Shown one piece after another: positions 1,216 to 39,981 of a stretch of 64,000 bases of DNA. Source of the DNA: an uncultured Desulfobacula sp. (lineage in GTDB: Bacteria > Desulfobacterota > Desulfobacteria > Desulfobacterales > Desulfobacteraceae); the NCBI GenBank assembly GCA_964635025.1, contig CAZWMY010000004.1, positions 13,526 through 77,525 on the forward strand. Reading direction: 5' to 3'. How positions within the stretch are numbered: position 1 is the stretch's first letter; each line of letters starts with the position of its first letter. Position numbers and translations under genes: made by a program. A model generated the notes under the pieces. It saw nothing but the letters and a program-made list of their open reading frames with translations, did not search any database and was not told where the DNA came from.

Positions 1216-1552
1216 AACACCTTCTCCACAATAAAAAATAAATTCCTGACCCTGATATACTGCCTTTGGGAGGCAATGTATCCCTGCTCTATAACCAAGC
1301 ATTTATTTATTTACATTGTAGCTATTTGTCAATCACTATTTGTGATTATTTGTCAGTATTTCTAATAAATGTTTTAGGTTATAAAAAAATACTTACTATT
1401 ATCAACTAATTATAACCGATAATAATGTTTTTGATTTTTTATATTGACAAAAAGACAATTCATATCGAATATGGCTATTCAAATAACGGTCTTTGCTTGC
1501 ATTGGAATAAATCGAATGTGGTAAGAATTGGAAACAATAGGCAATACAGGTA

Positions 1553-3358: not shown

Positions 3359-3405
3359 CCGTTCAAGTGTATTAGCGTATTTGAAATAATAAGGAGAGAA
3401 AAGAC

Positions 3406-4451: not shown

Positions 4452-4483
4452 TCAAAAAGATCAGGATTTAAGAGGAGGCAATC

Positions 4484-5272: not shown

Positions 5273-5276
5273 TCCT

Positions 5277-6554: not shown

Positions 6555-6580
6555 TCACCCTTTTCGACTTATTTTTTAAG

Positions 6581-8620
6581 TTAATCAGCGCATTTTTCCA
6601 GTTTCACGGCACAGACCTTATAATCCGGTGTTTTGGAGATAGGGTCGAGAAACGTTCCCAGGACCTGGTTTGAATTTGCATTTTGAAAATGAAAATCCAT
6701 GAACAGTGATCCCGGAGGAACAATATCACCGATGCAGATGGGCGTGATGACTTCTCCCCGCCGCGACATCACCTTGATACGATCTCCGTTTTTGAGACCC
6801 ATTTTTCCGGCATCAACCGCATTGACCTGGGCAACCGGTTCCGGGAATTCATTTATTAATGTTTTGCATCTGCCGGTCATGGTGCTGGTGTTATAGTGTG
6901 CATACCTTCGCCCTGTTGTCAGGGTAAAAGGATACTGGCTGTCCGGGCCGTCTTTTGATTTTTGATACTCAACGCTATGAAATTTTCCTTTTCCCCGGGT
7001 GAACATTCCCTGGTGCAGAAACTGAGTGCCGGGATGTTCTGAAGACGGACACGGCCACTGGATTCCTTCAAAATCGATCCGGTCATAGGTGATTCCGGAA
7101 AAGCTGGGGGTGAGTGCTGTCATCTCCTGAAAGATTTCTTGTGCAGAATCATATTTCATTGCAACCCCCAGCCTTGTCCCGATTTCAGAAAAGATTTTCC
7201 AGTTGGGCAGGGCCTCTCCTGGCGGTTCAACAGCTTTGCGCACACGCTGGACCCGTCGCTCTGTATTGCTGAAGGTTCCATCCACTTCTGCCCAGCAGGC
7301 ACCGGGCAATACCACATCGGCCATCAGGGCTGTGGATGTGAGGAAAATATCGTGAACCACCAGGAATTCCGCAGACTCCAGGGCATGCCGGACGTGATCT
7401 GTATTGGGATCACCTTCAACGGAATTTTCACCAAAGATATATAAGCCTTTTAAGGACCCGTCAATGAGACCATCCATCATTTCCGGGATCATTTTTCCAA
7501 GATGCGGTGAAAGTTCAACCCCCCAGGCATCCTGGAATTTTTTCCGGACGTTCGGGTCAATAACAGGCTGATAGCCGGGATAAACATTGGGCAAAGCGCC
7601 CATATCGCAGGCACCCTGGACATTGTTCTGGCCCCTTAGGGGATTCACACCGCTGGAGGCCTTCCCGATCTGGCCCGTCAAAAGGGCAAGGTTGGCAAGG
7701 GCTTTGACATTATCAACCCCGTGTGAATGTTCTGTGATGCCAAGGGTGTAGCAGATGCTGGAATTTTTTGATGTGGCATAGAGTCTGGCTGTTTCCTTAA
7801 TCTTTTCAACAGAGACGCCGGTTATTTCCGATACACGTTCCAGGGTATAGGGCCGGATGGTTTCCTTTAAAATTTCAAAATCCTCGGTGCGGGTGGATAT
7901 GAATTCTTCATTGTGCAGGTTATTGTTCAGGATTTCATTCATGACCCCGTTGAGAAAAGCGATGTCTGAGCCGAAATTCAGCTGGATATGGATATCGGCA
8001 AAAGCGGAAAGATGTATTTTTCTTGGGTCCACCACAATAAGTTTTGCACCTTTTTCTTTTGCCCTGAACATCCGGTAAGCAATCAAGGGATGGGCCTCTG
8101 TTGTATTGGACCCAACCACCATCAGGCAATCGGTATCTTCAATCTCGGCGATTGAATTGGTCATGGCACCACTTCCAAACGCTGCGGCAAGACCTGCCAC
8201 GGTAGGGGCATGTCAGAGCCGGGCGCAGTGATCGATATTGTTGGTCTGAAAGGCGGTCCGGCAGAGTTTCTGGCAGAGATAGTTTTCTTCATTTGTGCTG
8301 CGGGCCGAGCTGAAAAATCCGATGCTGTTTCCGCCGTGGGTGTTTTTTATTTCGGAAAACTTCGATGTGATGAGATCAAACGCCTCTTCCCAGCTGGCTT
8401 TTTCCAGCTTGCCGTTTTTCCGGATCAAAGGATGGGTCAGGCGATCCTTGCTGTGAACAAATTCATGGGCCGAGTGCCCTTTGATACATAATTTGCCCTG
8501 GTTCATCCGTTTTTCTTTTGAGGGCAGGGTGTTCACCAGTTTGCCGTCCAGAACTTCAAGCAGCATCTGGCAGCCGCAGCCGCAATAGGGGCAGGTGGTT
8601 TTCACACATCGGTAATCCAT
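6581..8620 (-). CDS. fdhA: Selenocysteine-containing formate dehydrogenase alpha subunit (FdhF/FdhA-like molybdo/tungstopterin enzyme); Sec encoded by TGA at 8213..8215
   Basis: Track ORFs 8213..8620 and 6581..8200 are in the same frame. The junction reads [32 protein letters not shown], the canonical FDH Sec active-site context. The N-terminal 4Fe-4S motif is CPYCGCGCQ...C. There is no Tat signal. Confidence 0.9.
8184..8212 (-). promoter_or_regulatory. SECIS-like element of fdhA-1
   Basis: A 12-nt spacer (CATGCCCCTACC) follows the TGA. Next comes the hairpin GTGGCA-GGTCT-TGCCGC (6 bp including one G-U pair, with a GGUC-containing loop). The spacing and loop match what I recall for E. coli fdhF. 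Confidence 0.65.
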
Positions 8621-8708
8621 TTGGTAACGCTCTCCTTTGTATTAAACATCTCATTCCCTTATTTGCCGGTCGTATTTAAATAATTCCGGGGTGGAAATGA
8701 ATTTTTTT

Positions 8709-8732
8709 CGTTGTGTCAAAAAAAACATAACG
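8709..8732. promoter_or_regulatory. ModE-box-like palindrome upstream of fdhA-1
   Basis: Sequence is CGTTGTG-tcaaaaaaaa-CATAACG, about 90 nt upstream of the fdhA-1 ATG. It has the same 7-N10-7 architecture as the sites at 20482 and 53154. Confidence 0.5.
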
Positions 8733-8796
8733 ATATGTTTAATATGGGTCCCTTGGTTTGTCAAGAGCCTGGATTTAAAATGCGGATTATCTTTTC

Positions 8797-9390
8797 TTAT
8801 TTCATCAGAATGGGCCGATCATATGTACCCAATGCACAAGGCCTGCAAAGGATTTGATCATTTTTTATGACTTCGCGTTTGTCTCTTACCACCTGTCCGC
8901 ATTGTTGGCAGACCGCCTTGAACCGGGTGGGTCCGGGCATGTCTGATGCGCTTACGGTCACCCGAACCTCTCCAATCGTAAATTAATCTTGAAGGGTCAT
9001 TCTTTTATACGCAAGAAGCTGCTGCTCGTTTTTGCCCATTATTTCCGGCTCATATTTTTGAGCAAGGTCTCTGGAAGTTTCTTTGGATACAATCCTGAAA
9101 GCCTTGCCTGATTCAAGGTTGACAAAGGTGGCGGCCATGATGCCGTTGTCGATAAATTTTAATGATCGCCTGCCCAATTTTGCGCCGGTAACAAAAGAAA
9201 TTGCATCGGCGGCGCATCGGTCCATTTCCACATAAACGATGAGATTTTTTATCCGGGCAGGCTCTTCCATATCATCCAAGCCGAGGAGTCGGCATCCTTC
9301 CATTGCCATTTGCACGCCGATAACCTGACCGGGACGGAGGTGACCATGGGCTTTTGCTGATTTTTTCAGCAGGGTTTCAAAATTTTCCAT
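8797..9390 (-). pseudogene. FmdE-family protein interrupted by an in-frame TAA (8983..8985): FmdE domain ORF 8983..9390 plus an in-frame CxxC..CxxC zinc-ribbon tail 8797..8982
   Basis: The N-terminal part reads AHGHLRPGQVIGVQMA...VEMDRCAADAISFVTG (FmdE domain). After the TAA the same frame reads FTIGEVRVTVSASDMPGPTRFKAVCQQCGQVVRDKREVIKNDQILCRPCALGTYDRPILMK. A GTG at 8961 preceded by GGAGAGG could alternatively start a separate 54-aa zinc-ribbon ORF. Confidence 0.6.
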
Positions 9391-9436
9391 GAATTATTCC
9401 CAATGTATCTTGTTTGGCTTTTTTTATTTTTCAAAA

Positions 9437-9468
9437 TTGACCTTATGTTAAGGTTGACATAAGGTCAA
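9437..9468. promoter_or_regulatory. Perfect 12-bp inverted repeat (terminator-like hairpin or operator) between the methyltransferase and fmdE-like genes
   Basis: Sequence is TTGACCTTATGT-taaggttg-ACATAAGGTCAA. On the minus strand the hairpin is followed by TTTTG. Confidence 0.4.
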
Positions 9469-9649
9469 GAACGATTGTTATATTTTTGTCCAAAAGGTCC
9501 TGATCAGGAATACCGAAAACCGTATACAAGGCATTGAAAAAAAGCTATAAATGAAGATCAAACAAAAGCGCAATGTTTAAAGGGTATGTATGAAGCTTAA
9601 ATCCAGCCAGATCCTTCTTGCCGATGACACCATTTTCGACGATATTTTT

Positions 9650-10312
9650 TCAGACCAGGGATGAAGCAAGAGCTCTGCCTTTATTGACAAATACAAACAC
9701 ACCGCCACAGCTTGATACCTGCTTATAGCCGACATCCAACCCGGCCCGGTCACAAGCGGCAATGGTTTCGTCGGCAGCCCAATAATACTCATTCTTATCC
9801 CAGCTTTCAGCCCATTTCCGAGAAGCCCTTGTTCGGGCATTTTTGCTCGGAAATGCAATGTCGGCGATGACGATACGGCCGGAGGCCGAGATGTGATTCA
9901 ACACAATTTTCCGAAGCAGCCCGATCTTTGTTTCAAGATCAAACTCATGAAAAACATAAGCCGATACAACACGGTCAAACACCCGTTCAAGTTCGGCGGG
10001 CCAGCCGCTCAAAAGATCGGCCTGCACAAGCACGGTTTCCGGAAGTTTATTACGCGCCTTCAGGATCATTTCCTGGGAAAAGTCCACGCCCCAAACCGAG
10101 CAGCCTTTTTGAAGAAACCGAGAGGCCAGGTTGCCGGTGCCGATACCAAGATCAAGCACCTGCATGCCTGGTGCGGTTTGACCAAGCCGAACAGCTTCAT
10201 CCAACACCTTTTCATACCCTTCAAAAGGGAACCTGTTTTGGGTTGGAGACCCTTCAGCATCATATTTTTTTGCCCAGGCATCGAACAAGTGAACCCGTTC
10301 TTTGGGATTCAT
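9650..10312 (-). CDS. Class I SAM-dependent methyltransferase
   Basis: The SAM-binding motif reads VLDLGIGTGNLA. ATG 10312 overlaps the upstream GNAT stop (ATGA), so it is preferred over the track start at 10330. Confidence 0.8.
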   Translation of the reverse strand: MNPKERVHLFDAWAKKYDAEGSPTQNRFPFEGYEKVLDEAVRLGQTAPGMQVLDLGIGTGNLASRFLQKGCSVWGVDFSQEMILKARNKLPETVLVQADLLSGWPAELERVFDRVVSAYVFHEFDLETKIGLLRKIVLNHISASGRIVIADIAFPSKNARTRASRKWAESWDKNEYYWAADETIAACDRAGLDVGYKQVSSCGGVFVFVNKGRALASSLV

Positions 10313-10794
10313 CGGCAATTCCCTTGCCAAGGCACTTGCATGGCCATTTCAACACCTGTTAATTTAGTGAATTCGTCGCTTTCTGAAAATTCGTCTTCCT
10401 GTTCCAATGTCACCATGAAACCAAGGCGTTTGAATATATCAACATTGCCGGTTTCTTTTACAGTGTACAGGTGAATCCGAGCCGCTTCTTTTTTTGCAGC
10501 AATAGCTTCAAGCGCACAAATCAGGCTGCGGGCCACACCGAGCCGCCTGAAATCTTGATGCACGCCAAGGCCCATGATTCCAAGAGATTGATTTGTTATG
10601 CGATATTCAACAGTCCCAACGATACGGCCGCTGATAACGGCAACAAGCCTTTGGGTTTGGTTGCCTATCCGGGCCTTGTTGGCAATTGCCTTTTGGCTGG
10701 GGCGATAGGTCCGTCGGAGGATTGCCGTGGCTGACGCATCCACTTCTTGAATGCCGGGCCTGTCATCCGGTTTTTCGGGTCGTATGGTTATCAT
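10309..10794 (-). CDS. GNAT-family N-acetyltransferase
   Basis: 161 aa. The acetyl-CoA-binding region reads LGVHQDFRRLGVARSLI. Confidence 0.75.
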   Translation of the reverse strand: MITIRPEKPDDRPGIQEVDASATAILRRTYRPSQKAIANKARIGNQTQRLVAVISGRIVGTVEYRITNQSLGIMGLGVHQDFRRLGVARSLICALEAIAAKKEAARIHLYTVKETGNVDIFKRLGFMVTLEQEDEFSESDEFTKLTGVEMAMQVPWQGNCR

Positions 10795-10800
10795 TTTATC

Positions 10801-11286
10801 TCAGGTCAGTGTTAAAAGAAAATCAGCAAGGGGGTCTACCTCTGATCTTTGAAAGACCTGAAGATCCGTATCCCCGACAGGGTCGTCCGTCACAACGGCT
10901 TTTACAAGTTTGATTCCTGTGAACAAAGGCGGTCTTCCGATAGCCTTTCTCCAGACTTCGATTTTCTGGAATGGTCCGCTGATCCAGCCTTCTATCAGGA
11001 CAATATCCACATTTGAATAATAGGTTTCAAGAATTTTTTCAGGGGAGATGCCCAAAGCCCTCGGCAGATAGATAGCGCTCAATTCTTCTGTAATTGCAGA
11101 TACCGGTGCCGCACCTGCTGTCCGGTGCCGGAAAGAATCCTTGCCCGGTTTGTCCAATTCATGGACATGAGCGCTATGCTTCATTGTCCCGACGCGGATA
11201 TTTTTATTGACCAGATTTTTCACAAGATCAACAATCAATGTGGTTTTTCCGCAGCCTGCATGACCGACAATGTGGATGGGTGTCAT
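10801..11286 (-). CDS. mobB: Molybdopterin-guanine dinucleotide biosynthesis adaptor MobB
   Basis: 161 aa. It has the Walker A motif GHAGCGKTTL and the downstream motifs VGTMKHSAH and KPGKDSFRH. Confidence 0.8.
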   Translation of the reverse strand: MTPIHIVGHAGCGKTTLIVDLVKNLVNKNIRVGTMKHSAHVHELDKPGKDSFRHRTAGAAPVSAITEELSAIYLPRALGISPEKILETYYSNVDIVLIEGWISGPFQKIEVWRKAIGRPPLFTGIKLVKAVVTDDPVGDTDLQVFQRSEVDPLADFLLTLT

Positions 11287-11313
11287 TCTTTGATTCCTTT
11301 GAAACAGGTAAAC

Positions 11314-11538
11314 TTATTTACGCGGCAGTATGTCATAAATCAGGGTTAAAATAAATAAAAATGCCGGGATGGTTAAATGCCCATTTTGCCAAAAAGAATC
11401 TTCAACCGATGTATCTAAAAATGCATCAAAAGAAGTGTTCGCACCAATATGGGAATGCAGCCACCGAAGGCTCTGAATATCCGATTCCACATAATCAACC
11501 AAAGTGCCGTCAAGATCGAATAATATGGCTTTAAACAT
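11314..11538 (-). pseudogene. Truncated HAD-superfamily hydrolase remnant
   Basis: Only 74 aa. It starts with HAD motif I (MFKAILFDLDGTLVD) but lacks motifs II-IV. The tail looks out of character and mobB starts 27 nt downstream. Confidence 0.55.
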
Positions 11539-11550
11539 AAAAAAAAGCCC

Positions 11551-12051
11551 TTAAATGTTTTTCCTGTATCGGCATTCAATCAACACCCTGCTGCCAATAA
11601 GGATGGTCTTCCGGGTCCCATCGGCAGCATAACCGGCCTTTTGATAGAATCGCCGTGCTCGGCTGTTCAGTTCAAATACCCACAGGGTAATGACGGTGAA
11701 ACTCATCTCCAACAATCGATCTTCCACGACAGCCATCATTTTTCTGCCATACCCTTTGCCCTGGTGACCGGAATCAAGGTAGACGGCATAAATTTCGCCT
11801 GTTCCGGCCCCATCATCATCACGGCTTGGCCCGAATGATGCCCAGCCCACAATCCCGGAATCCTCGTTTGTGATGACAATGGTGCCGTGGGCAGATTGGG
11901 TCAGCACATCAGCCCATCGATTCTGCCGGGATTCCTTTGACAGATTGGCCAGAAAACTTTCCGGGATTATTCCGGCATAGGCATCACGCCAGGTATCAAC
12001 ATGGATACGGGCGATGGCGGGTGCATCTTCAACTGTGGCGTCACGTATCAT
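11551..12051 (-). CDS. GNAT-family N-acetyltransferase
   Basis: 166 aa. It reads IYAVYLDSGHQGKGYGRKMM, with a C-terminal FYQKAGY motif. Confidence 0.8.
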   Translation of the reverse strand: MIRDATVEDAPAIARIHVDTWRDAYAGIIPESFLANLSKESRQNRWADVLTQSAHGTIVITNEDSGIVGWASFGPSRDDDGAGTGEIYAVYLDSGHQGKGYGRKMMAVVEDRLLEMSFTVITLWVFELNSRARRFYQKAGYAADGTRKTILIGSRVLIECRYRKNI

Positions 12052-12297
12052 CCCAGTCTTTCAGTCTCCCATTTTTGATGAATTTTCTATAGATCCAGAA
12101 CCTGGATACCATACCGGCAACAACACCTCAACAGGTTTTCAAAAAACGTTTTTGGTTATTTATGGTAAGTATTGGAATTAAAACATTTGATTACACACTA
12201 ATATTTACAATAATTAACCGATTTGCTTGACAGAAGAAAATTTATTTATTATCGCAGTCTTACAAATTTTTTAACCCAATTGACGAGGGGCGTTAAC

Positions 12298-14067
12298 ATG
12301 CAATGCAATATATGTGAATTCAGATGCAGTATCCCGGAAGCCGGTACAGGCCGGTGCCGGATGTATACCCACACGGATAACCGGATCAGTGAAATATACC
12401 CGGACAATTATCTGGTTTGTGTTCCGGCGCCTATAGAAGCCATGCCCATGACCCATTATCACCCCAATTCAAAATTTCTTCAGATCTGCACCTTTGGGTG
12501 CAATTTCAGCTGTAGCGGATGTGTTTCCTGGATCATGACTGAAAATAAGGATTCTGTTAAAGGGGCGGTCAATCCTATCAGGGCAGAGGATATGGTACAG
12601 CGCGCCCTTGATGAAAACTGCAAGGGAATCATGTTCTGCTTTAATGAACCGGCAGTTTCTTTTTTTACCTTTAAAAATCTTGCGCGCATTGCAAGACAAA
12701 AGGGCCTGCTGGTGGGATGCGCCACCAATGGATATTTCACAGAGGAGGCTTTTCTGGATCTCCTGGACCATATCGATTTTATCAACATCGGTCTGAAAGG
12801 CCATTCAGACAGTGTTTATAAAAAAACCGGGGCATTGAGTCATGACCCCATTTACAGGAATCTGGCATTAAGTCTTGAGAAAAAGGTCCACACTGAAGTA
12901 GCGGCTGTTTATATCAAAGGGCAGGAAGCGGAATTGATGGAAACCGCCCGCCACGTTGCATCCCTGTCCGGGGAAATCCCGTTCCAGGTCATGCGGTTCA
13001 TGCCGCTGGCCCATTCGGATGCGGCAGATGAGCCCTCCATAAAGGAAGCGGAAAGTCTGTGCAAAGATTTAAAACAGATACTTAAATTCGTATATCTGTT
13101 TAATTCTCCGGGCACGGAATTTTTAGACACCCTGTGCCCGGAATGCGGGCACAGGATTTTCAAGCGGGGGTTTAACGGGCCCATGTGTTCCAATTTAACG
13201 GCGTATTCCCCGGGGGAATCCTGCGGGTTACCCCATGACGGGCTCTTTGAGGGCACTGTCTGCGAGGATAACGGACTTGAGGCGCTGAGTTTCTTTGGCG
13301 GTTATAAAAACATCCTGTCCCTTGAAAATATCCGGACCATCCTGGCATTTGTCGGGGAAACAGATACACAGGCCGTCAGCCGTGTATTCCATGAAGTGTT
13401 GAAAACAGACTATATCAAAGGGCTGTATCCGCGGTTAAAACAGATTCCTTCCTATCTGGACACGGTTGATTATTTTTCCGGGATTGCAGGAAGACAGAAA
13501 GAGGCAGGCCTGCTCAGGGCGTATATTGAAGAAAAGGTGGCAGAGGTAACCACTGCATTGGCCGGGGTTGAGCGGCCAAGGGTGTATTATGCCCTGAGCA
13601 ATCCGCTGATTGCCGTGTTCGGGGACAAATTTGAATGCAACCTGGTTGAAACCGCAGGCGGATGCTGTGTCAATAAGGAGATCCAGCGCGACGACATACC
13701 GGGCAGCACCATCCCGGTTGAACTGTTCAACCGCCTGAACCCGGACATCATCCTGGTACATGGACAAATCGGATATTCAGTGCCGGAAGTTTACACATTC
13801 TGTGTCGACAACGGCATGATGGTGAATGCCGTCAAAAACAGCAGAATATACAATCTTTACCCCTATCGCACGGCAGGACGGCCGGACTGGATTCTCGGGC
13901 TTTTGAGCATTGCCAATCTACTTCATCCCGACCGGTTTCATTTTGATGTTGCTAAAATCGCGGATGACTTATATCACCGACTGTTTGGAACAGATTATTC
14001 GGTCCTGAACCACAATCTGGCATTTGATGTCCTGTTGTCCGAACAGATAAAAAGGCAGGCGTCTTGA
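12298..14067 (+). CDS. Cytoplasmic radical SAM enzyme (PflA/AmmeMemoRadiSam-like N-terminus) fused to a BtuF/FhuD-type substrate-binding-protein domain
   Basis: ATG 12298 follows GAGGGG. A Cys cluster (CNICEFRC...GRC) is followed by the CxxxCxxC motif CNFSCSGC. The C-terminal ~240 aa (RPRVYYALSNPLIAVFGDKFECNLVETAGG...LNPDIILVHG...DWILGLLSIANLLHPDRF) parallels the neighbouring periplasmic SBP. There is no signal peptide. The stop overlaps the next start (TTGA). Confidence 0.75.
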   Translation: MQCNICEFRCSIPEAGTGRCRMYTHTDNRISEIYPDNYLVCVPAPIEAMPMTHYHPNSKFLQICTFGCNFSCSGCVSWIMTENKDSVKGAVNPIRAEDMVQRALDENCKGIMFCFNEPAVSFFTFKNLARIARQKGLLVGCATNGYFTEEAFLDLLDHIDFINIGLKGHSDSVYKKTGALSHDPIYRNLALSLEKKVHTEVAAVYIKGQEAELMETARHVASLSGEIPFQVMRFMPLAHSDAADEPSIKEAESLCKDLKQILKFVYLFNSPGTEFLDTLCPECGHRIFKRGFNGPMCSNLTAYSPGESCGLPHDGLFEGTVCEDNGLEALSFFGGYKNILSLENIRTILAFVGETDTQAVSRVFHEVLKTDYIKGLYPRLKQIPSYLDTVDYFSGIAGRQKEAGLLRAYIEEKVAEVTTALAGVERPRVYYALSNPLIAVFGDKFECNLVETAGGCCVNKEIQRDDIPGSTIPVELFNRLNPDIILVHGQIGYSVPEVYTFCVDNGMMVNAVKNSRIYNLYPYRTAGRPDWILGLLSIANLLHPDRFHFDVAKIADDLYHRLFGTDYSVLNHNLAFDVLLSEQIKRQAS

Positions 14068-15161
14068 AAACGATTCCGCTCATCAGATCGTATATCGCCC
14101 TTGCGGGTATTTTCCTGCTGATGGTATCTTGCATCTGTCTGCCGGTCCAAGCCCGGGCAAAACAGTTGACCCTCCTGGACGGAAAAGTCATTACCCTGCC
14201 CGATGAAACCCGGAAAGTAGCCTGCCTGTTCGGCCCTTCCTTTGAAAAGGTATTTCTGCTCGGGGCAATTGAAAAAATTGTGCTGTGCTCGGAATTTCAT
14301 CAAAATATGTGGGGCTGGTCCAGACTCGTTTATAAAGGGATAGAAAAAATTCCAACCACCAATGCCGTTCAGCAGGTGAACATTGAAGAGCTTCTGAAAA
14401 TAAAACCGGATGTTGTTTTTTTCTGGAACAAACCCGACTCTGTAAAAATATTAAACAATATCGGTATTTCCGTTGTGTATCCAAGCGGGGCCGTGGGCAG
14501 CCATCTCAGTGATGCCAAAACCCTGCTGCAAATCTACGCCAAAGCCCTGGGAAAAAAGGAAGAACAGATCGCCAACCAGTACTGCACCTATTTTGATGCA
14601 AAACTTAAAATGGTGAAGGACATTGTTTCAACCCTTCCTGAATCCAAAAAACCCCGTGTTTATTTTGCCATCCGGACACCGCTTTCTTCCAGCGGAAAAG
14701 ACACCATATTGCCCAATATTGTTGAAGCAGCCGGAGGGCGAAGCGTGACCAGGGATATTTCTCTCAATTATGGCGGAACCGTCAGCATGGAGCAGCTCCT
14801 GGCCTGGAATCCTGAATTTTTCATCATGGATCATTGCGGGTTTAAGGCATTGGGGTCCGGACCGGCAGAAGATATGGTGGCCGATATGATGAAAGATGAA
14901 AGATTTGAAAAAATCTCTGCCGTAAAAGATAACAAGGTGTTTATCAGCCCGACAGGCGTATTTTTCTGGGATGCCGGGCAACAGGTGATTTTGCAGGTCA
15001 TGTGGCTGGCAAAAATTCTGCACCCGGAAAAATTTCGTCATATCGACATGAAGGATGAGCTCAAATATTTTTATTCAACATTTTTCCGGTTTGACCTGGA
15101 TGATGATCAGGCTTACCGGATCTTAAACAACCTGCCGCCGGCACCACTCCCCGAAGGTTGA
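14064..15161 (+). CDS. Periplasmic substrate-binding protein, FecB/BtuF (cluster A-II/class III) type, importer 1
   Basis: TTG start. The signal peptide is MKTIPLIRSYIALAGIFLLMVSCICLPVQARA. Motifs are KPDVVFFW, KPRVYFAI and WNPEFFIMD. Confidence 0.85.
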   Translation: MKTIPLIRSYIALAGIFLLMVSCICLPVQARAKQLTLLDGKVITLPDETRKVACLFGPSFEKVFLLGAIEKIVLCSEFHQNMWGWSRLVYKGIEKIPTTNAVQQVNIEELLKIKPDVVFFWNKPDSVKILNNIGISVVYPSGAVGSHLSDAKTLLQIYAKALGKKEEQIANQYCTYFDAKLKMVKDIVSTLPESKKPRVYFAIRTPLSSSGKDTILPNIVEAAGGRSVTRDISLNYGGTVSMEQLLAWNPEFFIMDHCGFKALGSGPAEDMVADMMKDERFEKISAVKDNKVFISPTGVFFWDAGQQVILQVMWLAKILHPEKFRHIDMKDELKYFYSTFFRFDLDDDQAYRILNNLPPAPLPEG

Positions 15162-15180
15162 AGCATGAGCAGGAAAAAGG

Positions 15181-16245
15181 ATGATGCCGGATGGAAAAGT
15201 CATGAAACACACCCCGCGGCCTGATGTCCATGCCCGCCATGGACTTGCCCCTGCGACGCTGATCATCCTGATTGTGGCGCCTTTGGTTCTTTTTTTTGCA
15301 TCCCTGTGCATCGGCAGATACCCGGTGTTGCCGGGGGATACCTTTCATATCCTTTTGTCCCGCTTTGTCCAGATGGACCCGGCATGGCAGGAAACAGCCG
15401 AAACAGTGATATTGAAGGTCAGGCTGCCCCGGGTCCTCATGGCCATGCTTCTGGGAGCCGGGTTATCCATTGCCGGTGCATCCTTCCAGGGAATTTTCAG
15501 AAACCCGCTGGTGGGCCCCAGCATCCTTGGCGTTTCCCAGGGAGCAGGGTTTGGAGCGGCATTGGCCCTCCTGTTAGGCGGCAATATGATCGTGGTTCAT
15601 GTCTCAGCTTTTTTTTCCGGTCTCCTGGCCGTTGGGGCTGCCTATGCCATGAGCCGCATTCAAAAAGGAAAGCATCTTTTGATGCTGGTGCTGAGCGGCA
15701 TGATTGTTGCGGCTGTGTTCTCGGCCCTGATCAGCCTGATCAAATATATGGCTGACCCCATGGAAAAACTTCCCAATATTGTTTTCTGGCTCATGGGTAG
15801 CCTGGCCGGAACCGATTATCATGATCTTGCCATGGGATTTCCCTTTATTGCCGCCGGTTCCATGGTGCTTGTGTCCATCCGGTGGCGGATCAATATCCTG
15901 GCGCTGGGAGATGAAACCGCAACCGCATTTGGTGAAAACACAAGGCTTATGCGGATCGTTGTCATTCTCGCCTCCACAGTGATCACGGCCTCTACCGTGG
16001 CCTTATCCGGCATCATCGGATGGGTGGGGCTCTTGATCCCCCACATCACCCGGATGATCGTCGGGCCCAATCATTCATATCTTTTGCCTGCTTCCTTATC
16101 CATTGGTTCGGTTTATCTGCTCCTGATGGATGATATTGCCAGATCGGCAGGCCCCGGCGAAATTCCCCTGAGTATCCTGACCGCCCTGATCGGCGCGCCG
16201 TTTTTCGGTTATCTCTTGAGATATACCGGCGGAAGGTGGTCCTGA
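15181..16245 (+). CDS. FecCD/BtuC-family ABC permease, importer 1
   Basis: 354 aa and polytopic. Motifs are RLPRVLMAMLLGAGLSIAGASFQGIFRNPLVGPSILGVSQGAG and IPLSILTALIGAPFFGYLL. Confidence 0.9.
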   Translation: MMPDGKVMKHTPRPDVHARHGLAPATLIILIVAPLVLFFASLCIGRYPVLPGDTFHILLSRFVQMDPAWQETAETVILKVRLPRVLMAMLLGAGLSIAGASFQGIFRNPLVGPSILGVSQGAGFGAALALLLGGNMIVVHVSAFFSGLLAVGAAYAMSRIQKGKHLLMLVLSGMIVAAVFSALISLIKYMADPMEKLPNIVFWLMGSLAGTDYHDLAMGFPFIAAGSMVLVSIRWRINILALGDETATAFGENTRLMRIVVILASTVITASTVALSGIIGWVGLLIPHITRMIVGPNHSYLLPASLSIGSVYLLLMDDIARSAGPGEIPLSILTALIGAPFFGYLLRYTGGRWS

Positions 16246-17054
16246 TGCTGGAAATTAAAGCGGCCGGATTTTCCTATAATGCCAGAAACACGGTATTTGA
16301 CCATATCAATTTTCAGATCAGACCCGGCGAAATTGTGACGATTCTCGGCCCCAACGGCGCCGGAAAAAGCACGCTTTTAAAATGTATCAACCGGATTTTA
16401 ACCTTGAAAACCGGTGATATTCTGTTTAATCAGGAAAGTCTGTTAAAAATTCCCAGAAAAAAAATCGGCACCCTGATGGGCTATGTCTCCCAGTCCGAAG
16501 AAAGTACCTTTCCCTTTAATGCGCTTGAAATGGTGCTCATGGGCAGGGCTGCCCATCTGAATATCTTTCAATCCCCCGGTGACCGCGACCGGACCATTGC
16601 TGAAAGCGCCATGCAATACCTGGGGATAGAACATCTGTCGGGCAGACTATACAAGGACCTCAGCGGCGGAGAATCACAGCTTGTCACCATTGCCCGGGCA
16701 TTGTCGGCTGAACCCGGGGTCCTGCTCCTGGATGAGCCCACATCCCATCTGGATCTGAAAAATCAGATGACGGTGCTTAAAGCTCTGATCCAGTTGTCCA
16801 GGGAAAAAGGGCTGGCCGTCCTGATGACCACCCATCAGCCGGATCATGCCATGGTATTATCAGACCGGGTGCTCATGATGAAAATGGACGGCACCGCTCT
16901 TTTCGGAAAAACAGCCGACATCATTACCCCCAAAACCATACAGGATATCTTCGGCATTCGTGTTAACATCCTGTCAGCCGGTTCTGATACCGGTACTGTG
17001 AATACGGTGGTTCCGGACTGGGCAGCGATTTTATCGAAAAAAAAAGGATCATAA
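16245..17054 (+). CDS. ABC ATP-binding protein (FecE/BtuD type), importer 1
   Basis: Walker A is GPNGAGKST, the signature is LSGGESQ and Walker B is LLLDEPTSHLD. ATG 16245 overlaps the permease TGA; the track alternative start is 16236. Confidence 0.9.
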   Translation: MLEIKAAGFSYNARNTVFDHINFQIRPGEIVTILGPNGAGKSTLLKCINRILTLKTGDILFNQESLLKIPRKKIGTLMGYVSQSEESTFPFNALEMVLMGRAAHLNIFQSPGDRDRTIAESAMQYLGIEHLSGRLYKDLSGGESQLVTIARALSAEPGVLLLDEPTSHLDLKNQMTVLKALIQLSREKGLAVLMTTHQPDHAMVLSDRVLMMKMDGTALFGKTADIITPKTIQDIFGIRVNILSAGSDTGTVNTVVPDWAAILSKKKGS

Positions 17055-17114
17055 GTTCTGTTTATCTGACTTTAAAAACAATCTTTTTTGGTCATGTCAT
17101 TACCCCACAGCCGG

Positions 17115-17615
17115 TTAAGACTCTTTCTTGCTGAATTTTCTATAGATCGCAACACACCACATTGTGCTCAGGATAAGATATCCTCCCAGGGTGATCCAGA
17201 AATGACCCAACCGGGTCGCCTTGCCCAGGTGAACCTGGAATGACTGATGAGCAATGTCGAGCAGAAGAATCATCGTGAGGGAACCCAGCCATAGAAACCA
17301 GGGGAGCATATAGTCAGAGGTTTCCCGGCGACGTTCCGGTGCCAGCCAGTAATCCTTGTTCGGCAGATTGATTAGCGCATTGGGGATCTTTGTCAGAGCG
17401 AGACCCAGACCAAGAAAAATTGCCGCCATCACGCCGACAGCAACAAGATAGACAACTATGAATTGCATTTTGCTGCCCCATGCATCCGGCCGTCCTGATG
17501 GACCAAAATGGGTGGCGACCTTCTCAGGTAAAAGGGGATAGTAGTAGAGTGTGTGTGCCACACAGGTCACACAAAGAATTACAAATACAATGATTGCTGA
17601 AGTGCGGTTGTTCAT
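17115..17615 (-). CDS. DUF1648/SdpI-like integral membrane protein
   Basis: 166 aa with four hydrophobic segments. The N-terminal motif reads LPEKVATHFGPSGRPDAWGSK. Confidence 0.6.
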   Translation of the reverse strand: MNNRTSAIIVFVILCVTCVAHTLYYYPLLPEKVATHFGPSGRPDAWGSKMQFIVVYLVAVGVMAAIFLGLGLALTKIPNALINLPNKDYWLAPERRRETSDYMLPWFLWLGSLTMILLLDIAHQSFQVHLGKATRLGHFWITLGGYLILSTMWCVAIYRKFSKKES

Positions 17616-17667
17616 TTTATTACTCCTGATTTCTAATTTATGCCTTCCAGTTGAGGTTCAGGAACAA

Positions 17668-17716
17668 TAAAAAAGGTTTTCATAACGGCTTTGGAAAATT
17701 TCCAAAGCCGTTATGA
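17668..17716 (-). terminator. Rho-independent terminator downstream of fdhA-2
   Basis: A perfect long hairpin TTCATAACGGCTTTGGAAA/TTTCCAAAGCCGTTATGAA starts 6 nt after the fdhA-2 stop. On the minus strand it is followed by CCTTTTTTATT. Confidence 0.8.
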
Positions 17717-17721
17717 AGAGT

Positions 17722-20418
17722 TCATACTTTTTCAATCCTAACCGCACAGGCTTTATATTCTGCGGTTTTGGAGATCGGGTCAAAGGCCGGGTTGGTCAGC
17801 CAGTTGGCATTCCCCTCCCGGAAATGGAAATCCATCCAGACCAGACCTTCCGGAACTTCACGAGTGATTCTTGCCTTGACTTCCACACCACCCCGGCGGG
17901 ATTCCACTTTGATTCGCCCGCCTTGTTCAATTCCCAGTTTTTTTGCATCTGCCAATGATATGTCGGCAACGCTTTCATTCAAGAGCTCATTTAATCCGTC
18001 GCAATGACCGGTCTGGGTCCGTGTATGGTAATGATACAGTCTGCGGCCGGTACTGAGAACGAGCGGATACTGCTCATCCGGAACCTCTGCCGAAGGCCGC
18101 CAGTCAATGGCGGAAAATTTGCCGAGACCGCAGGTAAATTGTCCGTCTGCATGGAGAAAGCAGGTGCCCGAATGTCTTTCATCCGTGCAAGGCCACTGTA
18201 GACCGTCTCCTTCAATGCGATCATATTTGATTCCCTTAAAAGAGGGTGCCATCAAGGAAAACTCGTTATCCCAGATCTCCCGGGCGCTGTTGGATTGCCA
18301 CTCATGGCCGAACCGTCCGGCGATCTCTTTGAATATCATCCAGTTGGGTTTTGCCTTGCCTGGAGCACGGCTGGCAGTACGAACCCGGCTGACACGTCGC
18401 TCGCTGTTGGTAAAGGTGCCGTCATTTTCACTCCATGCTGCAGCCGGAAGAATCACATCGGCAAACCGGGTGGTTTCGTTCTGGAAAATATCCTGAACAA
18501 CCAGAAAATCGGCTGATTCAAGGCAATGCTCTACGTGACGGATATCGGGCTCGGTATTGGCCAGATTTTCACCAAACACATAGAAGGCCTTGATTTTTTT
18601 ATTTACCAGTCCGTCCATCATATCCGGGATCATCATACCGACTTTGTCGGGAAGATTTTCAACTCCCCAAGCTTTACTGAATTTTTCCCGGACATCGGCA
18701 TCTATCACATTCTGATATCCAGGCATCACATTCGGCAATGCTCCCATATCGCATGCGCCTTGTACATTGTTCTGTCCCCGGAGCGGGTTTACGCCGCCGC
18801 TTTCAAGGCCGATATTTCCCAGCAGCATTTGCAAATTGGCAACGGACATGACATTATCCACGCCGCTTGTGTGTTCGGTGATCCCTAGCGTGTAGATAAC
18901 CATTACCGGTTTAATGGAAGCCAGTTTGCGGGCGAGTTCACGAATTGTTTCCGGTGGAATGCCGCAAATCTCAGAGGCTCTCTCGGGTGGGTATTCCTCT
19001 ACTTTTTCTTTTAGTTCTTCAAATCCGAACGTGCAGCGGTCGACAAATTTTTTATCATAAAGATTTTCTTTGATCAGCACATTCATGATGCCGTTTAACA
19101 GGGCGACGTCACTGCCGACTTTCAAGGGGATATGCATGTGGGCAAAGTCAACGAGCTTATGGGCGCGCGGATCGGCCACGATCAGGGTCGCCCCATTTTT
19201 GACTGCATTCTTTACAAACGTGGCCGCCACAGGATGGGCTTCCACCATATTGGAGCCAATAACGAAGAACATCTTGGCGTTTTTAAATTCACAGAAGGAA
19301 TTGGTCATTGCGCCTGAACCAAAGCTTGCCACCAGACCGGTGACAGTCGGAGCATGTCAGGTACGGGCACAGTGGTCAATATTGTTGGTTTTGAACACAC
19401 TCCTGAAAAGCTTTTGCATGTTGTATGAATCTTCATTGATACTGCGGGCGCAACTGACACCTGCCACCGAATCCGGTCCATGGGTTTCGATGGCTTCCCT
19501 GAATTTTGAAGCAACCAGGTCCAGTGCCTCATCCCATGAGGCTTCCATAAAGGTTCCATTCTTTTTGATCAAAGGGGTTGTGAGTCTTTCCTTGTCATAA
19601 ATAAAATCATAACCGAACCGGCCTTTGACGCAGAGTTTTCCATGATTCGGCTCTGCATTTTCAACACCCGTAACCCTGATAATTTTTCCCCGGTTCACAT
19701 GCAGCCAGATCTGGCACCCCACACCACAATAGGGGCATGTGGACCGGATTTTCTTTTGTTCCCAAATCCGGCCCTTGCCTTTGGATTTTTTCTCGGTCAG
19801 GGCGCCTACCGGACAAGCCTGAACACATTCGCCGCAAAAGACGCAATCGCTTCTGGGGTCCATCAGGGGGCTGTCATACGCAGTGATGATACCCGTCTGG
19901 ACGCTGCGGTAACCAAAGTCGATGGCATTGTTCACCTGGATATCATTGCATACCTGGACACAGCGGCCGCACAAGACACATTTGGACGGATCACGGATAA
20001 TAAAGGGGTTGGCATCATCAATGGCAGGATGTTTTACATCAGCGCTGAACCGGGGTTGCTCGATGCCGTGTTCATACGCCAGATTCTGGAGGGTGCAGTT
20101 GCCGTTGGCCTCGCATACCATGCAGTCATGTTTTCCGTATGCCAACAAGAGTTCAATGCTGATTTTTCGGATCATTTGGACTTCAGGCGTATCGGTTTTT
20201 ACAACCATCCCGTCTTTTGCAGGCGTGTTGCAAGCGGTCTGCGGCCTTTTGTTTCCATTGACTTCCACCATGCACACCCTGCAGGTAGCCGTTGGTGTAA
20301 CCTTTCCATAATAGCAGAGGGTCGGGATACGAATGCCGTTTCGGGAAGCTGCCTTAAGGACGGTATCTCCGTCTTTGAATTCATACTCGCTGCCGTTAAT
20401 AATAATTTTTCGACTCAT
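17722..20418 (-). CDS. fdhA: Selenocysteine-containing formate dehydrogenase alpha subunit with N-terminal 2Fe-2S/4Fe-4S ferredoxin-like domains; Sec encoded by TGA at 19357..19359
   Basis: Track ORFs 19357..20418 and 17722..19332 are in frame. The junction reads [32 protein letters not shown]. The N-terminus carries a 2Fe-2S motif (TCRVCMVEV), two CxxCxxCxxxC motifs (CVLCGRCVQVC, CVFCGECVQAC) and CPYCGVGC. Confidence 0.9.
19328..19356 (-). promoter_or_regulatory. SECIS-like element of fdhA-2
   Basis: A 12-nt spacer (CATGCTCCGACT) follows the TGA. Next comes the hairpin GTCACC-GGTCT-GGTGGC. The geometry and GGUC loop are identical to fdhA-1. Confidence 0.65.
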
Positions 20419-20481
20419 TCAACACCTTTTAATTCTCTTATAGATTGAGTTAACAATTCATAAACCTTAAACAATCAGATT

Positions 20482-20505
20482 CGATATGGCATAAAAAACA
20501 TATCG
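20482..20505. promoter_or_regulatory. ModE-box-like palindrome upstream of fdhA-2
   Basis: Sequence is CGATATG-gcataaaaaa-CATATCG. The palindrome extends to TTCGATATG...CATATCGAA (20480..20507). It lies about 63 nt upstream of the fdhA-2 ATG. Confidence 0.55.
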
Positions 20506-20649
20506 AATGTTTATCACTCGGTTTATTGATTGTCAAAGGGAAAATTAGCAACCTTTTTTTAGGAAAAAAGCGACAACCGACTTGGCTTACCGCTGTTGAA
20601 TGTGCTTGTGGCTTCTTCTTTTAAATAGGTTGTTTCCCAAAATGGTTTT

Positions 20650-21471
20650 TTAGTTCCCATCATTGGTGTACCTCGCTTTTGCCTTGACTTCTCCTCCGGC
20701 AGGCAGGTCGTTCCAGTTTACAAAATGCGTTCGGTTTAGGTAGAGCAACCGGATAATCTCAGCCTTTCCTCTCCTTTTCACAAGAGCTTTTGTCTCCTTG
20801 TACGCCTGAAGATAGGCTTTATCTTGGTCTTCACAGCCGGCCAGATCGTTCCACATATCTTCCAGAGAGTATCCGTCTGCCCTGAAAATGTCCTTTACAA
20901 ATCCGGCTTGAAAATTGGGGGTTACATCGGTCATGATCAGCATTGCGAGGCCTTCTTCCAACCACATGGGGACATCATGATTCTCCTTGCGTTTCATGGT
21001 AAACGGAGTGGAGCGGGAAATATATCCGACAAAATGGTGGGTAATTTCGTGCGCCAATATTGCTGACAGGCGGCTTTTATCGGCATTTTTGCCGCCTGAT
21101 AGCGGCGAATCAAGAAGAATAATATTTACACCATTCCGGATCCCTGGGGCGCAAGCATAGCCCTCACCGCAGGGCATGCATGTCATGTATTGAAGGTCAG
21201 CTACCGCAGGCGCCATCCAAAGCTCGATGGCAATGTCGCCTCGATAATCAAACCAGTCTTTAACGAACGCATACATATTCAAAAACAATTTGCTTACCGA
21301 TGCGATTGCCGATTCATCCGGTTTACCGTAGCAAATACTAAGATGGCTTGTCACCAAGTGTTTTTCCGTGATGCCCGGAGATTTTTCAAAACGCTCACAA
21401 AGATATTGCGTCTTTCGAAGGTTCAATCTTTGTTCAATCACGGAGTCCATGTTGTCCAGGCTTTTGTTCAA
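20650..21471 (-). CDS. Cytoplasmic MA-clan (gluzincin, Peptidase_MA_2-like) zinc metallopeptidase; last gene of the importer-2 operon
   Basis: It carries the HEXXH motif (ILAHEITHHF) and a downstream Glu motif (PMWLEEGLAML). There is no signal peptide. The start (21471 or 21450) overlaps the DUF364 stop. Confidence 0.65.
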   Translation of the reverse strand: MNKSLDNMDSVIEQRLNLRKTQYLCERFEKSPGITEKHLVTSHLSICYGKPDESAIASVSKLFLNMYAFVKDWFDYRGDIAIELWMAPAVADLQYMTCMPCGEGYACAPGIRNGVNIILLDSPLSGGKNADKSRLSAILAHEITHHFVGYISRSTPFTMKRKENHDVPMWLEEGLAMLIMTDVTPNFQAGFVKDIFRADGYSLEDMWNDLAGCEDQDKAYLQAYKETKALVKRRGKAEIIRLLYLNRTHFVNWNDLPAGGEVKAKARYTNDGN

Positions 21472-22279
21472 TCACTATACGCTCGGCATATTTGTCAAGA
21501 AAATGATAGCCTGAGCCTCCGGTTGATAGAATCTCCAGCAATCGGTCCGGCTGCGTCACGACCACTCCGCCGACTACCGTAACGCCTCTTTTAAAAAGCG
21601 GTTCCGGCAACGCACTTGCCGTAGGACCCATGACGGCGATCACAGCACCGGGTTTTGCAGCAGCCAGGATGCCTTCCAATGTATGATTGATCAGTGTGAC
21701 ACCCGTAATAATCAAAATATCTGCCTGGTTAATAATTTTGCCTGAACCTTCTGCCGGGATAAAGTGCGGCATTTCGTCATCGGTCAGCGTTTCCGGTTCC
21801 TGTTCAATAACCCACCAGGTTCCGCCGCGGGCCTTTAAAGCATGAAGGGTGGGAACAAAGGCACCCACAACAGCAACTGATTTTTCAAGCGGCATTTTTA
21901 CCGCATCCTGGGCATCCATTTTTTTTGTTATGGCATAATCTCCCGTTACCCCGTTTTTCCAGCATCCAGCACTCAGAGCATTCAGGGTTGCAATGGCCAC
22001 AGCCGTTTTGATTGGCTCATCAGAAGACAATCCAATGAGAACCTCTTTTACCGGCATGCCGTTCAGGTTTTCAGGGTTAAAGATTCGTCCTGCCGAACTG
22101 GGGCAGCAGACAGCCTTGGGAATCGACTTAACAGGAGTATAACATAACCCGCCGAAACCATTGGAAAGCTTAACTCCGGTGAAAAAAAGCCCGATAACGG
22201 CTTTTTCAATGGTCAGGTGGTTAAAGGCTTTCCCTGTTTTTTCTTTCACAAGATCAGATGTTTCTTCAAGGATTTTCAT
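21434..22279 (-). CDS. DUF364/DUF4213 protein (enolase-N-like plus Rossmann-like; 'putative heavy-metal chelation' family)
   Basis: 281 aa. It reads FFTGVKLSNGFGGLCYT, AVAIATLNALS, KSVAVVGAFVP and ADILIITGVTLINHTLEGIL..AVMGPTASALPEPLFKRGVTVVGGVVV, the pattern I associate with PF13938+PF04016. Confidence 0.75.
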   Translation of the reverse strand: MKILEETSDLVKEKTGKAFNHLTIEKAVIGLFFTGVKLSNGFGGLCYTPVKSIPKAVCCPSSAGRIFNPENLNGMPVKEVLIGLSSDEPIKTAVAIATLNALSAGCWKNGVTGDYAITKKMDAQDAVKMPLEKSVAVVGAFVPTLHALKARGGTWWVIEQEPETLTDDEMPHFIPAEGSGKIINQADILIITGVTLINHTLEGILAAAKPGAVIAVMGPTASALPEPLFKRGVTVVGGVVVTQPDRLLEILSTGGSGYHFLDKYAERIVIEQKPGQHGLRD

Positions 22280-22322
22280 TTTTTCTCCAAAATAAAAATT
22301 TTAGGCAATTATTTTTAATGGA

Positions 22323-23396: not shown

Positions 23397-23398
23397 TG

Positions 23399-25999: not shown

Positions 26000-26011
26000 T
26001 TTTATCCTTTT

Positions 26012-28187: not shown

Positions 28188-28196
28188 ATGGATTGA

Positions 28197-33008: not shown

Positions 33009-33028
33009 AAAGAAATAGCTGCTCAATG

Positions 33029-34663: not shown

Positions 34664-34667
34664 AAAA

Positions 34668-39977: not shown

Positions 39978-39981
39978 TCTT

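Follow-up and report, generated by a model that had tools for sequence, protein, structure and literature searches.

We describe here a fused gene in a 64,000-nucleotide (nt) stretch of DNA from an uncultured Desulfobacula sp. (assembly GCA_964635025.1, contig CAZWMY010000004.1), a stretch that we call, at its full length, the window. The gene encodes a radical S-adenosylmethionine (SAM) enzyme whose C-terminal part appears to derive from a substrate-binding protein (SBP), and it is the first of a four-gene operon in which an exported SBP, a FecCD/BtuC-type permease and the ATPase of an ATP-binding cassette (ABC) importer follow it (Table 1). The reading frame opens with an ATG that has a GAGGGG ribosome-binding site just 5' of it, and it closes with a TGA (14065-14067) that overlaps the TTG start of the SBP gene (14064-14066) in the letters TTGA; the SBP and permease genes are separated by 19 nt, and the permease and ATPase genes overlap by 10 nt. 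A preliminary description of the locus had noted this overlap and had placed the fusion at the head of its own importer operon, and both statements are borne out; the link to FecBCD-type importers extends across the 83 loci discussed below. Among solved structures, 4ovk and MolA (HI1472) come nearest to the downstream SBP, and MolA aligns over its full length (E 3e-19). No called-gene record was found for the window's own fusion protein.

Radical-SAM core of the fusion protein

The Pfam model Radical_SAM (PF04055) matches residues 64-218 with 48.1 bits against a cut-off of 29.5, and in an alignment of 54 full-length homologues the cluster-binding cysteines C68, C72 and C75 are invariant. In the same alignment the four cysteines of an N-terminal knuckle (C3, C6, C10 and C20) are at least 90% conserved, and C280, C283, C309 and C311 form a further conserved four-cysteine set. 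The best NCBIfam model is TIGR04337, the radical SAM enzyme of the AmmeMemoRadiSam system, whose alignment runs from end to end over residues 1-320 (E 2e-34); at 119 bits the match falls well short of the cut-off of 220, so that the fusion is a relative of that family and not a member. Models of glycyl-radical activases (PflA, NrdG and others) reach 14-32 bits against cut-offs of 131-425, those of MoaA, NirJ and AhbC score far under TIGR04337, the model named 'tungsten cofactor oxidoreductase radical SAM maturase' matches weakly at 26 bits, and the NCBIfam search returned no curated model for the fusion architecture. Structural comparison with Foldseek places the N-terminal part of the predicted structure on the PFL-activating enzyme 3c8f, with a template-modelling (TM) score of 0.72 normalised to the target, and finds that the core, a partial TIM-barrel fold, also resembles those of QueE, NifB and MoaA. 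The preliminary description, which had recognised the N-terminal cysteine cluster and the CNFSCSGC motif and had called the enzyme PflA/AmmeMemoRadiSam-like, is thus confirmed on this point by the Pfam score, the conserved cysteines, the end-to-end TIGR04337 match and the 3c8f structure. The Pfam and NCBIfam matches include no HemN/ChuW-like domain, and there is no Pfam match to the Rossmann-type B12-binding domain PF02310. As had also been claimed, the protein lacks a signal peptide: its hydropathy, averaged over 19 residues, peaks at 1.14, where the signal peptide of the downstream SBP reaches 2.44, and by this measure there is no hydrophobic segment either. The fusion is therefore predicted to be a cytoplasmic radical-SAM enzyme carrying binding-protein-derived sequence.

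Half of a binding protein at the C-terminus

By BLASTP, residues 414-572 of the fusion match residues 184-356 of the downstream SBP (27% identity, E 6e-12). The preliminary description had estimated that about 240 C-terminal residues align with this SBP and had spoken of a cytoplasmic domain of the BtuF/FhuD type; the homology and the cytoplasmic fusion stand, whereas the length falls to about 160-190 residues, confined to the C-terminal lobe, and the complete fold is not there, with helices in place of the N-lobe. The domain search that it had proposed gives the same divided picture, since Radical_SAM scores above its cut-off and Peripla_BP_2 below (16.5 bits vs 27.5), the latter match covering profile positions 94-231 of 235. 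A profile of the fusion family likewise matches solved SBPs only in their second half, with E values down to 2e-17: residues 153-332 of 4hn9 (E 2e-17), 107-320 of 4pag and 143-324 of MolA/HI1472, so that PDB SBPs align only from about residue 107-153 on.

An AlphaFold model built on the 54-sequence alignment (mean pLDDT 87, pTM 0.87) gives the order of elements as the radical-SAM domain, a low-confidence linker at residues 332-334, five helices (336-419) and an alpha/beta lobe (428-563). The last two helices of the bundle (about 380-419) are homologous to the backbone-helix region of SBPs, matches to which start at about 380-395. In Foldseek, some 200 residues of the C-terminal part match the group of 4hn9, 4pag, MolA (3psa), YiuA and CeuE with TM scores of about 0.45-0.53 of the target (E 4e-10), so that about one half of every SBP is covered. 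When residues 325-589 were searched exhaustively with HMMER, ordinary SBPs were recovered, and because these align only from about query position 55-70 onwards, the first helices of the bundle appear to be specific to the fusion family. The C-terminus consists, then, of the backbone helix and the C-terminal lobe (residues about 380-572), not of a complete BtuF/FhuD fold, and clamping of a ligand in the manner of an SBP is therefore not possible. Set against the class III (cluster A) SBPs, the fusion has the homologous C-lobe; it does not have the two-lobe architecture with a long backbone helix between alpha/beta lobes, and it is not exported.

The residues that fusion lobes and SBPs have in common lie mainly in the core (V429, Y430, G454-G455, P482, A511, L533, A539, P544 and F558-Y559). 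A second set, in loops, is near-invariant among the fusions and absent from the SBPs (P436, E446, N459, R464, P468-G469, C502, P522 and W531).

Spread and age of the fusion family

A protein search returned 382 clusters of fusion relatives, the best 120 of which are nearly all 560-620 amino acids long, and a scan of one genome per species across Bacteria and Archaea returned 370 relatives with lengths of about 580-600 amino acids. Carriers in the protein search include Geobacteraceae, Holophaga, Desulfobacter, Desulfobacula, Moorella, Spirochaetes, Methanococcoides, Methanofollis and others, and those in the genome scan include Methanoculleus, Methanoregula, Methanolinea, ANME-1, Methanolliviera, Syntrophales and Clostridium. 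The names attached to these proteins say nothing beyond 'radical SAM protein' or 'PFL-activating enzyme'. We compared the C-lobe columns of the fusions with 32 SBPs from the same loci and with the three SBPs of the window in a neighbour-joining tree. In this tree every fusion C-lobe falls into a single clade that excludes the SBPs, so that all fusions go back to one ancient event. The preliminary description had called the lobe a paralog of the periplasmic receptor; a recent origin from the local receptor does not fit this tree, nor does it fit the loop residues particular to the fusions, and the lobe is not a recent copy of the neighbouring SBP gene.

The exhaustive search revealed no clear separate architecture of the C-terminal module; shorter matches (298-436 amino acids), considered as stand-alone modules, start partway along the radical-SAM domain or at its C-terminal cysteine site, and they appear to be truncated gene calls. 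The closest relative on a long contig, at 67% identity, belongs to a locus (L086, 9605..16850) with two fusion paralogues of 610 and 579 amino acids in one operon, about 44% identical to each other's class. The gene order there is fusion, SBP, methyltransferase, second fusion paralogue, FecCD and ATPase, which suggests two subfamilies with distinct roles.

The preliminary description had been aware of no characterised example, and full-text searches found no paper on an architecture of radical SAM with Peripla_BP_2/PF01497, and nothing joining radical SAM with the riboswitch family RF01055 or with tungsten and FecCD. The terms tungstophore and molybdophore gave nothing, and AmmeMemoRadiSam gave passing mentions only.

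Conserved gene neighbourhood

In 83 fusion loci we called open reading frames (ORFs), compared them with reference proteins and counted the neighbours within 8 kb of the fusion. An SBP lies beside the fusion in 71 of the 83 loci, a class-I methyltransferase of about 215 amino acids, usually directly adjoining the fusion, in 66, and a FecCD permease and a FecE-type ATPase in 60 each. Rarer neighbours are DUF364 (14 loci), a stand-alone radical-SAM paralogue of about 340 amino acids paired with a 387-residue protein (11), a TonB-dependent receptor (7) and a TrmO_N-like protein (5). An unbiased all-against-all clustering of the neighbours in 80 loci brought out no other widespread partner: it contained no recurrent exporter family, no glycyl-radical enzyme or AOR gene, and no AMMECR1 or MEMO1 homologue as a conserved neighbour, the last two being absent from the Pfam-annotated loci as well. 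The fusion family is thus a fixed companion of FecBCD/MolBC-type (type II) importers in Bacteria and Archaea, and in most lineages it is also paired with the small class-I methyltransferase. The methyltransferase has a close solved homologue, 3dlc, which is itself uncharacterised. The window, like the Geobacteraceae loci, is without this partner; a class-I methyltransferase does lie at 9650..10330 (minus strand), and we rejected it as part of the system, given that it is not orthologous to the fusion-associated enzyme.

Several smaller families also accompany the fusion. The radical-SAM paralogue of about 340 amino acids is 33% identical to the fusion over residues 1-290 (for example at L006, 4210..6420, and in loci L010, L016, L019, L022, L041 and L054). 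Its partner of about 387 residues is not homologous to the fusion C-terminus, and neither Pfam nor NCBIfam gave a match for it. TrmO_N-like proteins, small and SAM-binding (L003, 9810..10307; L079 and L083), adjoin the fusion in Holophaga and occur within a modABC-like cluster in a Methanoregula locus; with them a further SAM-binding family is linked to the transporters. Genes resembling metallophosphoesterases or purple acid phosphatases occur in all four Pfam-annotated loci (window 5277..6554, L001 1144..1989, L006 15962..17200 and L086 8698..9480), yet they form no large cluster in the neighbour analysis.

Riboswitches and other regulatory sites

In eight loci the molybdenum cofactor/tungsten cofactor (Moco/Tuco) riboswitch RF01055 lies directly upstream, scoring 63-70 bits against the Rfam gathering score of 36. 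These are the loci of Moorella, of one metagenome-assembled Spirochaetia genome and of six Geobacteraceae. In Moorella the riboswitch precedes an operon of DUF364, FecCD, ATPase, SBP, methyltransferase and fusion; in the Spirochaetia genome it precedes an SBP-FecCD-ATPase operon that converges on a fusion-methyltransferase pair; and in the six Geobacteraceae it precedes SBP and fusion, one of them (L020) having the riboswitch about 230 nt before the fusion gene itself. The P3 hairpin (model positions 59-73) is missing in seven of the eight copies, as judged from the Rfam alignments for L020 and the Spirochaetia genome and from a gap in our own alignment for the other five Geobacteraceae; the Moorella copy has P3. 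It has been reported that P3-less members of RF01055 go with tungsten-cofactor genes and P3-containing members with Moco genes (Regulski 2008, PMC2408646). Two 'Fe ABC-type' transporters of Eubacterium limosum stand behind P3-less riboswitches, and one of the two, fetABC1, is upregulated under tungsten limitation (PMC11725836). A covariance model of our own, made from the eight riboswitches, found nothing further in the window and 82 loci, nor with filters off in the window and L086; iteration with nhmmer found no riboswitch beyond the eight; and RF01055 is not found upstream of the L086 operon.

The region 5' of the fusion gene in the window is AT-rich and contains an imperfect inverted repeat that gives a hairpin-like, spurious Rfam match on both strands. 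A promoter-like site lies at 12187-12214; the counts of the promoter and terminator scan are overall at chance level. From its sequence the repeat may be an operator or promoter region. Beside the repeat, the 11-mer TTTGGTTATTT (12151-12161) occurs again at about 29200..29215, in the divergent promoter region of a ModA-like gene and a DUF364 gene. It is the sole 11-mer shared between the intergenic regions of the window related to molybdenum and tungsten (Mo/W), in DNA that is AT-rich, and it may be a common operator or a chance occurrence in such DNA.

Tungsten and molybdenum genes around the fusion

Marker genes were counted on 82 non-redundant loci within the flanks that had been fetched, many of the loci being short contigs. 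A riboswitch, a DUF364 gene or ModA/ModB is present in the flanks of 27 of the 82, that is, in 17 of 37 bacterial and 10 of 45 archaeal loci. Several lineages thus have the unit under a Moco/Tuco riboswitch or in the company of DUF364 and ModAB genes. DUF364 has been reported beside molybdate, tungstate and iron transporters (PMC2954201), and in Methanococcus maripaludis a DUF364 gene in a modABC operon shows cofitness with nifH (bioRxiv 10.1101/2024.03.05.583561). MolA, one of the solved proteins nearest to the SBP downstream of the fusion, is the binding protein of the type II importer MolBC-A and binds both molybdate and tungstate (PMC4031551).

The window (1..64000) is itself a Mo/W island (Table 1). 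It also holds ExbB, TonB and FmdE, and in total it has two DUF364 genes and three FecBCD-type sets. Two formate dehydrogenase alpha subunits are interrupted by an in-frame TGA, and because each TGA sits at the canonical selenocysteine position, both are predicted to be selenoproteins and not pseudogenes. Two further genes were noted along the way. A 249-residue protein (25250..25999, minus strand) inside the operon of the TonB-dependent receptor and FecBCD has no Pfam match, is weakly similar to methanogenesis marker protein 11 and to the N-terminus of TiaS, and has one homologue near the fusion in L054; a 368-residue ORF (38871..39977, plus strand) upstream of a TPR protein also has no Pfam match.

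Table 1. Features of the fusion gene, its operon and the surrounding window
Feature	Position	Strand	Basis or remark
Fusion gene, 589 amino acids	12298..14067	+	radical-SAM enzyme + helical bundle + C-lobe of class-III binding protein
N-terminal four-cysteine knuckle C3, C6, C10, C20	12304..12357	+	within region aligned to AmmeMemoRadiSam-type model
Radical-SAM cluster motif C68-x3-C72-x2-C75 (CNFSCSGC)	12499..12522	+	invariant in homologue alignment; PF04055
PflA/AmmeMemoRadiSam-like radical-SAM domain, residues 1-320	12298..13257	+	TIGR04337 match; Foldseek
Second four-cysteine site C280, C283, C309, C311	13135-13230	+	cysteine conservation in homologues
Helical bundle, residues 336-419, in place of SBP N-lobe	13303..13554	+	AlphaFold secondary structure
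Alpha/beta lobe, residues 420-575, homologous to C-terminal lobe of MolA/YiuA/CeuE-type Peripla_BP_2	13555..14022	+	BLASTP, family profile, Foldseek
Exported SBP (Peripla_BP_2), N-terminal signal or lipoprotein-like segment	14064..15161	+	Pfam; hydropathy; nearest solved proteins
FecCD/BtuC-type permease (type II ABC importer)	15181..16245	+	PF01032, E 6e-86
ABC ATPase of importer	16236..17054	+	PF00005, E 9e-31
Imperfect inverted repeat, AT-rich region 5' of fusion gene	12154..12219		read directly
Formate dehydrogenase alpha subunit	6581..8620	-	in-frame TGA at HCARL-U-HAPTV
MobB (molybdopterin-guanine dinucleotide synthesis)	10801..11286	-	PF03205, E 6e-35
Formate dehydrogenase alpha subunit	17722..20418	-	in-frame TGA at HCART-U-HAPTV
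DUF4213/DUF364 protein	21434..22279	-	family recurs beside fusion and Mo/W transporters
Second transport block, outer limits	22323..29165	-	ModA-like SBP, receptor, 249-residue protein, FecCD, ATPase, SBP
SBP (second block)	22323-23396	-	
TonB-dependent receptor (second block)	26012-27991	-	
ModA-like SBP_bac_11 (second block)	28197-29165	-	
Third block: DUF364, SBP, FecCD, ATPase	29204..33008	+	
Molybdopterin oxidoreductase	35612-37639		
MobA-like NTP transferase with HD domain	46195-47310		
MoCF_biosynth protein	47323-48363		
Xanthine-dehydrogenase-family enzyme	49332-51695		

Proposed function and alternative explanations

From genes, gene context and models we infer that the fusion belongs to a tungsten/molybdenum (W/Mo) acquisition unit. 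Our tentative preference, held at somewhat less than an even chance, is that the enzyme works on the imported species, or on whatever carries it, once this is inside the cell, with the SBP-derived lobe holding that molecule and the methyltransferase assisting. What the importer brings in would be tungsten or molybdenum as the plain oxyanion, as with MolA, or, which is likelier given the TonB-dependent receptors, as a species bound to an organic carrier. The lobe, whether it packs onto the radical-SAM barrel or pairs up in a dimer, would present the imported molecule or carrier to the 5'-deoxyadenosyl radical, and the radical step, together with the methyltransferase where there is one, would alter the carrier, leaving the metal free for the pyranopterin cofactor pathway. 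Import followed by recapture and transformation of the ligand by the fusion, as the preliminary description had proposed, would be a reasonable mechanism. It is possible, although we would sooner bet against it, that anaerobic bacteria and archaea have here an unrecognised W/Mo scavenging route, in which a FecBCD-like importer takes up the metal, a radical-SAM enzyme with a captured SBP lobe frees it, and the finished cofactor shuts the route off through the riboswitch. Such a route may take metal that is carrier-bound or otherwise unusable, by way of a TonB-dependent receptor in Gram-negatives.

Several observations weigh against W/Mo acquisition. The riboswitch is found in only 8 of about 83 loci, and the window itself has none, either in an Rfam search of its whole length at the gathering threshold or in a search of the upstream region with E up to 10; the link to W/Mo in this organism therefore comes only from gene context. 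Most archaeal loci carry no W/Mo marker within the flanks. Similarity of the MolA type does not fix specificity, given that the same subgroup includes YiuA (Fe-catecholate fragments) and CeuE (Ni-histidine). The loop residues that set the fusions apart from the SBPs mean that the fusion lobe may not bind the same molecule in the same way. Finally, the authors of the E. limosum study interpret their Tuco-riboswitch-controlled transporters as a supply of iron (PMC11725836).

That interpretation leads to the main rival, which we consider unlikely: the importer would take up an iron chelate, and in the cytoplasm the fusion would break or modify the chelator and release iron, of which the iron-sulfur enzymes that use W/Mo require a great deal. 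FecBCD-type systems do usually import iron chelates, some loci have TonB-dependent receptors, the relatives of the SBP include YiuA and other iron-binding proteins, and the E. limosum transporters were read as iron uptake. A riboswitch that represses on binding the cofactor nevertheless agrees better with induction under tungsten shortage than with a supply of iron for abundant tungsten enzymes, and the response of fetABC1 to tungsten limitation (PMC11725836) fits tungsten scavenging at least as well as it fits iron supply. The DUF364 and ModAB neighbours point to Mo/W as well. Fur boxes (at most 5 mismatches) number 68 in 1.53 Mb, no excess over the roughly 2.95 per 64 kb in shuffled sequence, which speaks against iron in what is a weak test.

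It is less probable still that the locus serves biosynthesis, the fusion, the methyltransferase, DUF364 and the TrmO-like protein together building a metallophore from SAM, with the lobe serving to recognise the finished compound or an intermediate. SAM-binding proteins of four kinds do cluster with the transporters, and nicotianamine-type chelators derive from SAM. The one DUF364 enzyme characterised so far makes an azetidine amino acid by cyclising methylated SAM, and radical-SAM methylases co-occur with its family (PMC12930334). The minimal Geobacteraceae unit, however, is riboswitch, SBP and fusion with no other biosynthetic gene and no exporter; DUF364 is present in only about 13-14 of some 80 loci, and no exporter family recurs.

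We regard as improbable a third alternative, in which the enzyme is a maturase acting on a protein, perhaps a W/Mo enzyme or the importer's own binding protein, with the half-SBP as a docking module. The PFL-activating enzyme as the closest solved fold, the AmmeMemoRadiSam enzyme as the closest sequence model, the weak matches to glycyl-radical activases and the 26-bit match to the tungsten cofactor oxidoreductase maturase would all agree with it, but every one of these models falls far under its cut-off, and the conserved partner is a transporter, with no glycyl-radical enzyme, AMMECR1, MEMO or AOR gene as a conserved neighbour.

Uptake of a tetrapyrrole, heme or corrinoid, with anaerobic radical degradation or remodelling is very improbable. 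BtuF and the heme SBPs IsdE and BhuT are distant matches of the C-lobe, and the carriers are corrinoid-rich anaerobes; yet the best SBP matches are the MolA/YiuA/4hn9 group and not BtuF, the protein has neither of the expected domains (HemN/ChuW-like or B12-binding), and Rfam scans of the window and of 11 loci gave no cobalamin riboswitch. The comparison with anaerobic heme degradation that the preliminary description had drawn is disfavoured accordingly, because no heme or B12 marker is nearby and the regulatory and gene-context evidence points to tungsten and molybdenum. The remaining idea, that a frameshift or missed stop joins two ordinary genes, a case the preliminary description had itself raised, has only the low-confidence linker of the AlphaFold model in its favour and is refuted by hundreds of full-length homologues of 560-620 amino acids in independent assemblies from two domains of life, by the invariance of G334, G335 and Y336 at the junction in the 54 homologues, and by a junction free of any signal-peptide-like segment.

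To our knowledge, the acquisition of W/Mo by strict anaerobes is poorly understood beyond the oxyanion pumps ModABC, TupABC and WtpABC. If W/Mo acquisition is indeed the function, the fusion would be a new step in the W/Mo supply of strict anaerobes in sulfidic, metal-poor habitats, and 'iron' transporters under tungsten riboswitches would need to be reinterpreted. The carriers span methanogens, ANME archaea, sulfate reducers, Geobacteraceae, acetogens and spirochaetes. For enzymology, the substrate domain of this radical-SAM family, half a binding protein, is without precedent, and the family opens DUF364 and the AmmeMemoRadiSam-like clade, which are both largely unexplained, to experimental tests.

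Comparison with known systems

The closest enzymes are the PFL-activating enzyme and the AmmeMemoRadiSam enzyme (TIGR04337; COG1180), which share with the fusion the core fold, the CX3CX2C motif and the N-terminal cysteine knuckle, and which do not have its extra 270-residue C-terminal module. The AmmeMemoRadiSam system differs further, in that the fusion scores below the family cut-off and has no AMMECR1, MEMO or glycyl-radical enzyme as a neighbour. NifB is a radical-SAM core joined to a NifX-like domain that holds a metal-containing ligand. In NifB the carrier domain has a different fold and there are no nif genes here, so the likeness is limited to the radical-SAM barrel. ChuW and HutW, in anaerobic heme degradation, follow the same logic of a radical-SAM enzyme that is encoded with an importer and acts on the imported cofactor; ChuW, however, is a HemN-like class C methyltransferase without an SBP-derived domain, whereas the fusion has no HemN-like match and its context no sign of heme. 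DUF364 (PF04016) recurs in a minority of the fusion neighbourhoods and is tied to Mo/W transport and SAM chemistry, and it is a separate protein.

On the side of transport, the operon resembles MolA-MolBC (HI1470-1472) of Haemophilus influenzae: its SBP aligns with MolA over the full length, at low sequence identity, its permease is likewise of the FecCD/BtuC type, and the MolA structure 3psa is a structural match of the fusion C-lobe. We know of no radical-SAM partner of MolBC-A. The fetABC1/2 operons of E. limosum likewise have a P3-less RF01055 directly 5' of a FecBCD-type importer, fetABC1 being induced by tungsten limitation; they were read as iron uptake, and the paper mentions no radical-SAM gene (PMC11725836). 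The parts of the system, a radical-SAM core, an SBP lobe and a type II importer, are thus all of known kinds, and it is their combination, together with an apparent membership of the W/Mo regulon, that is new.

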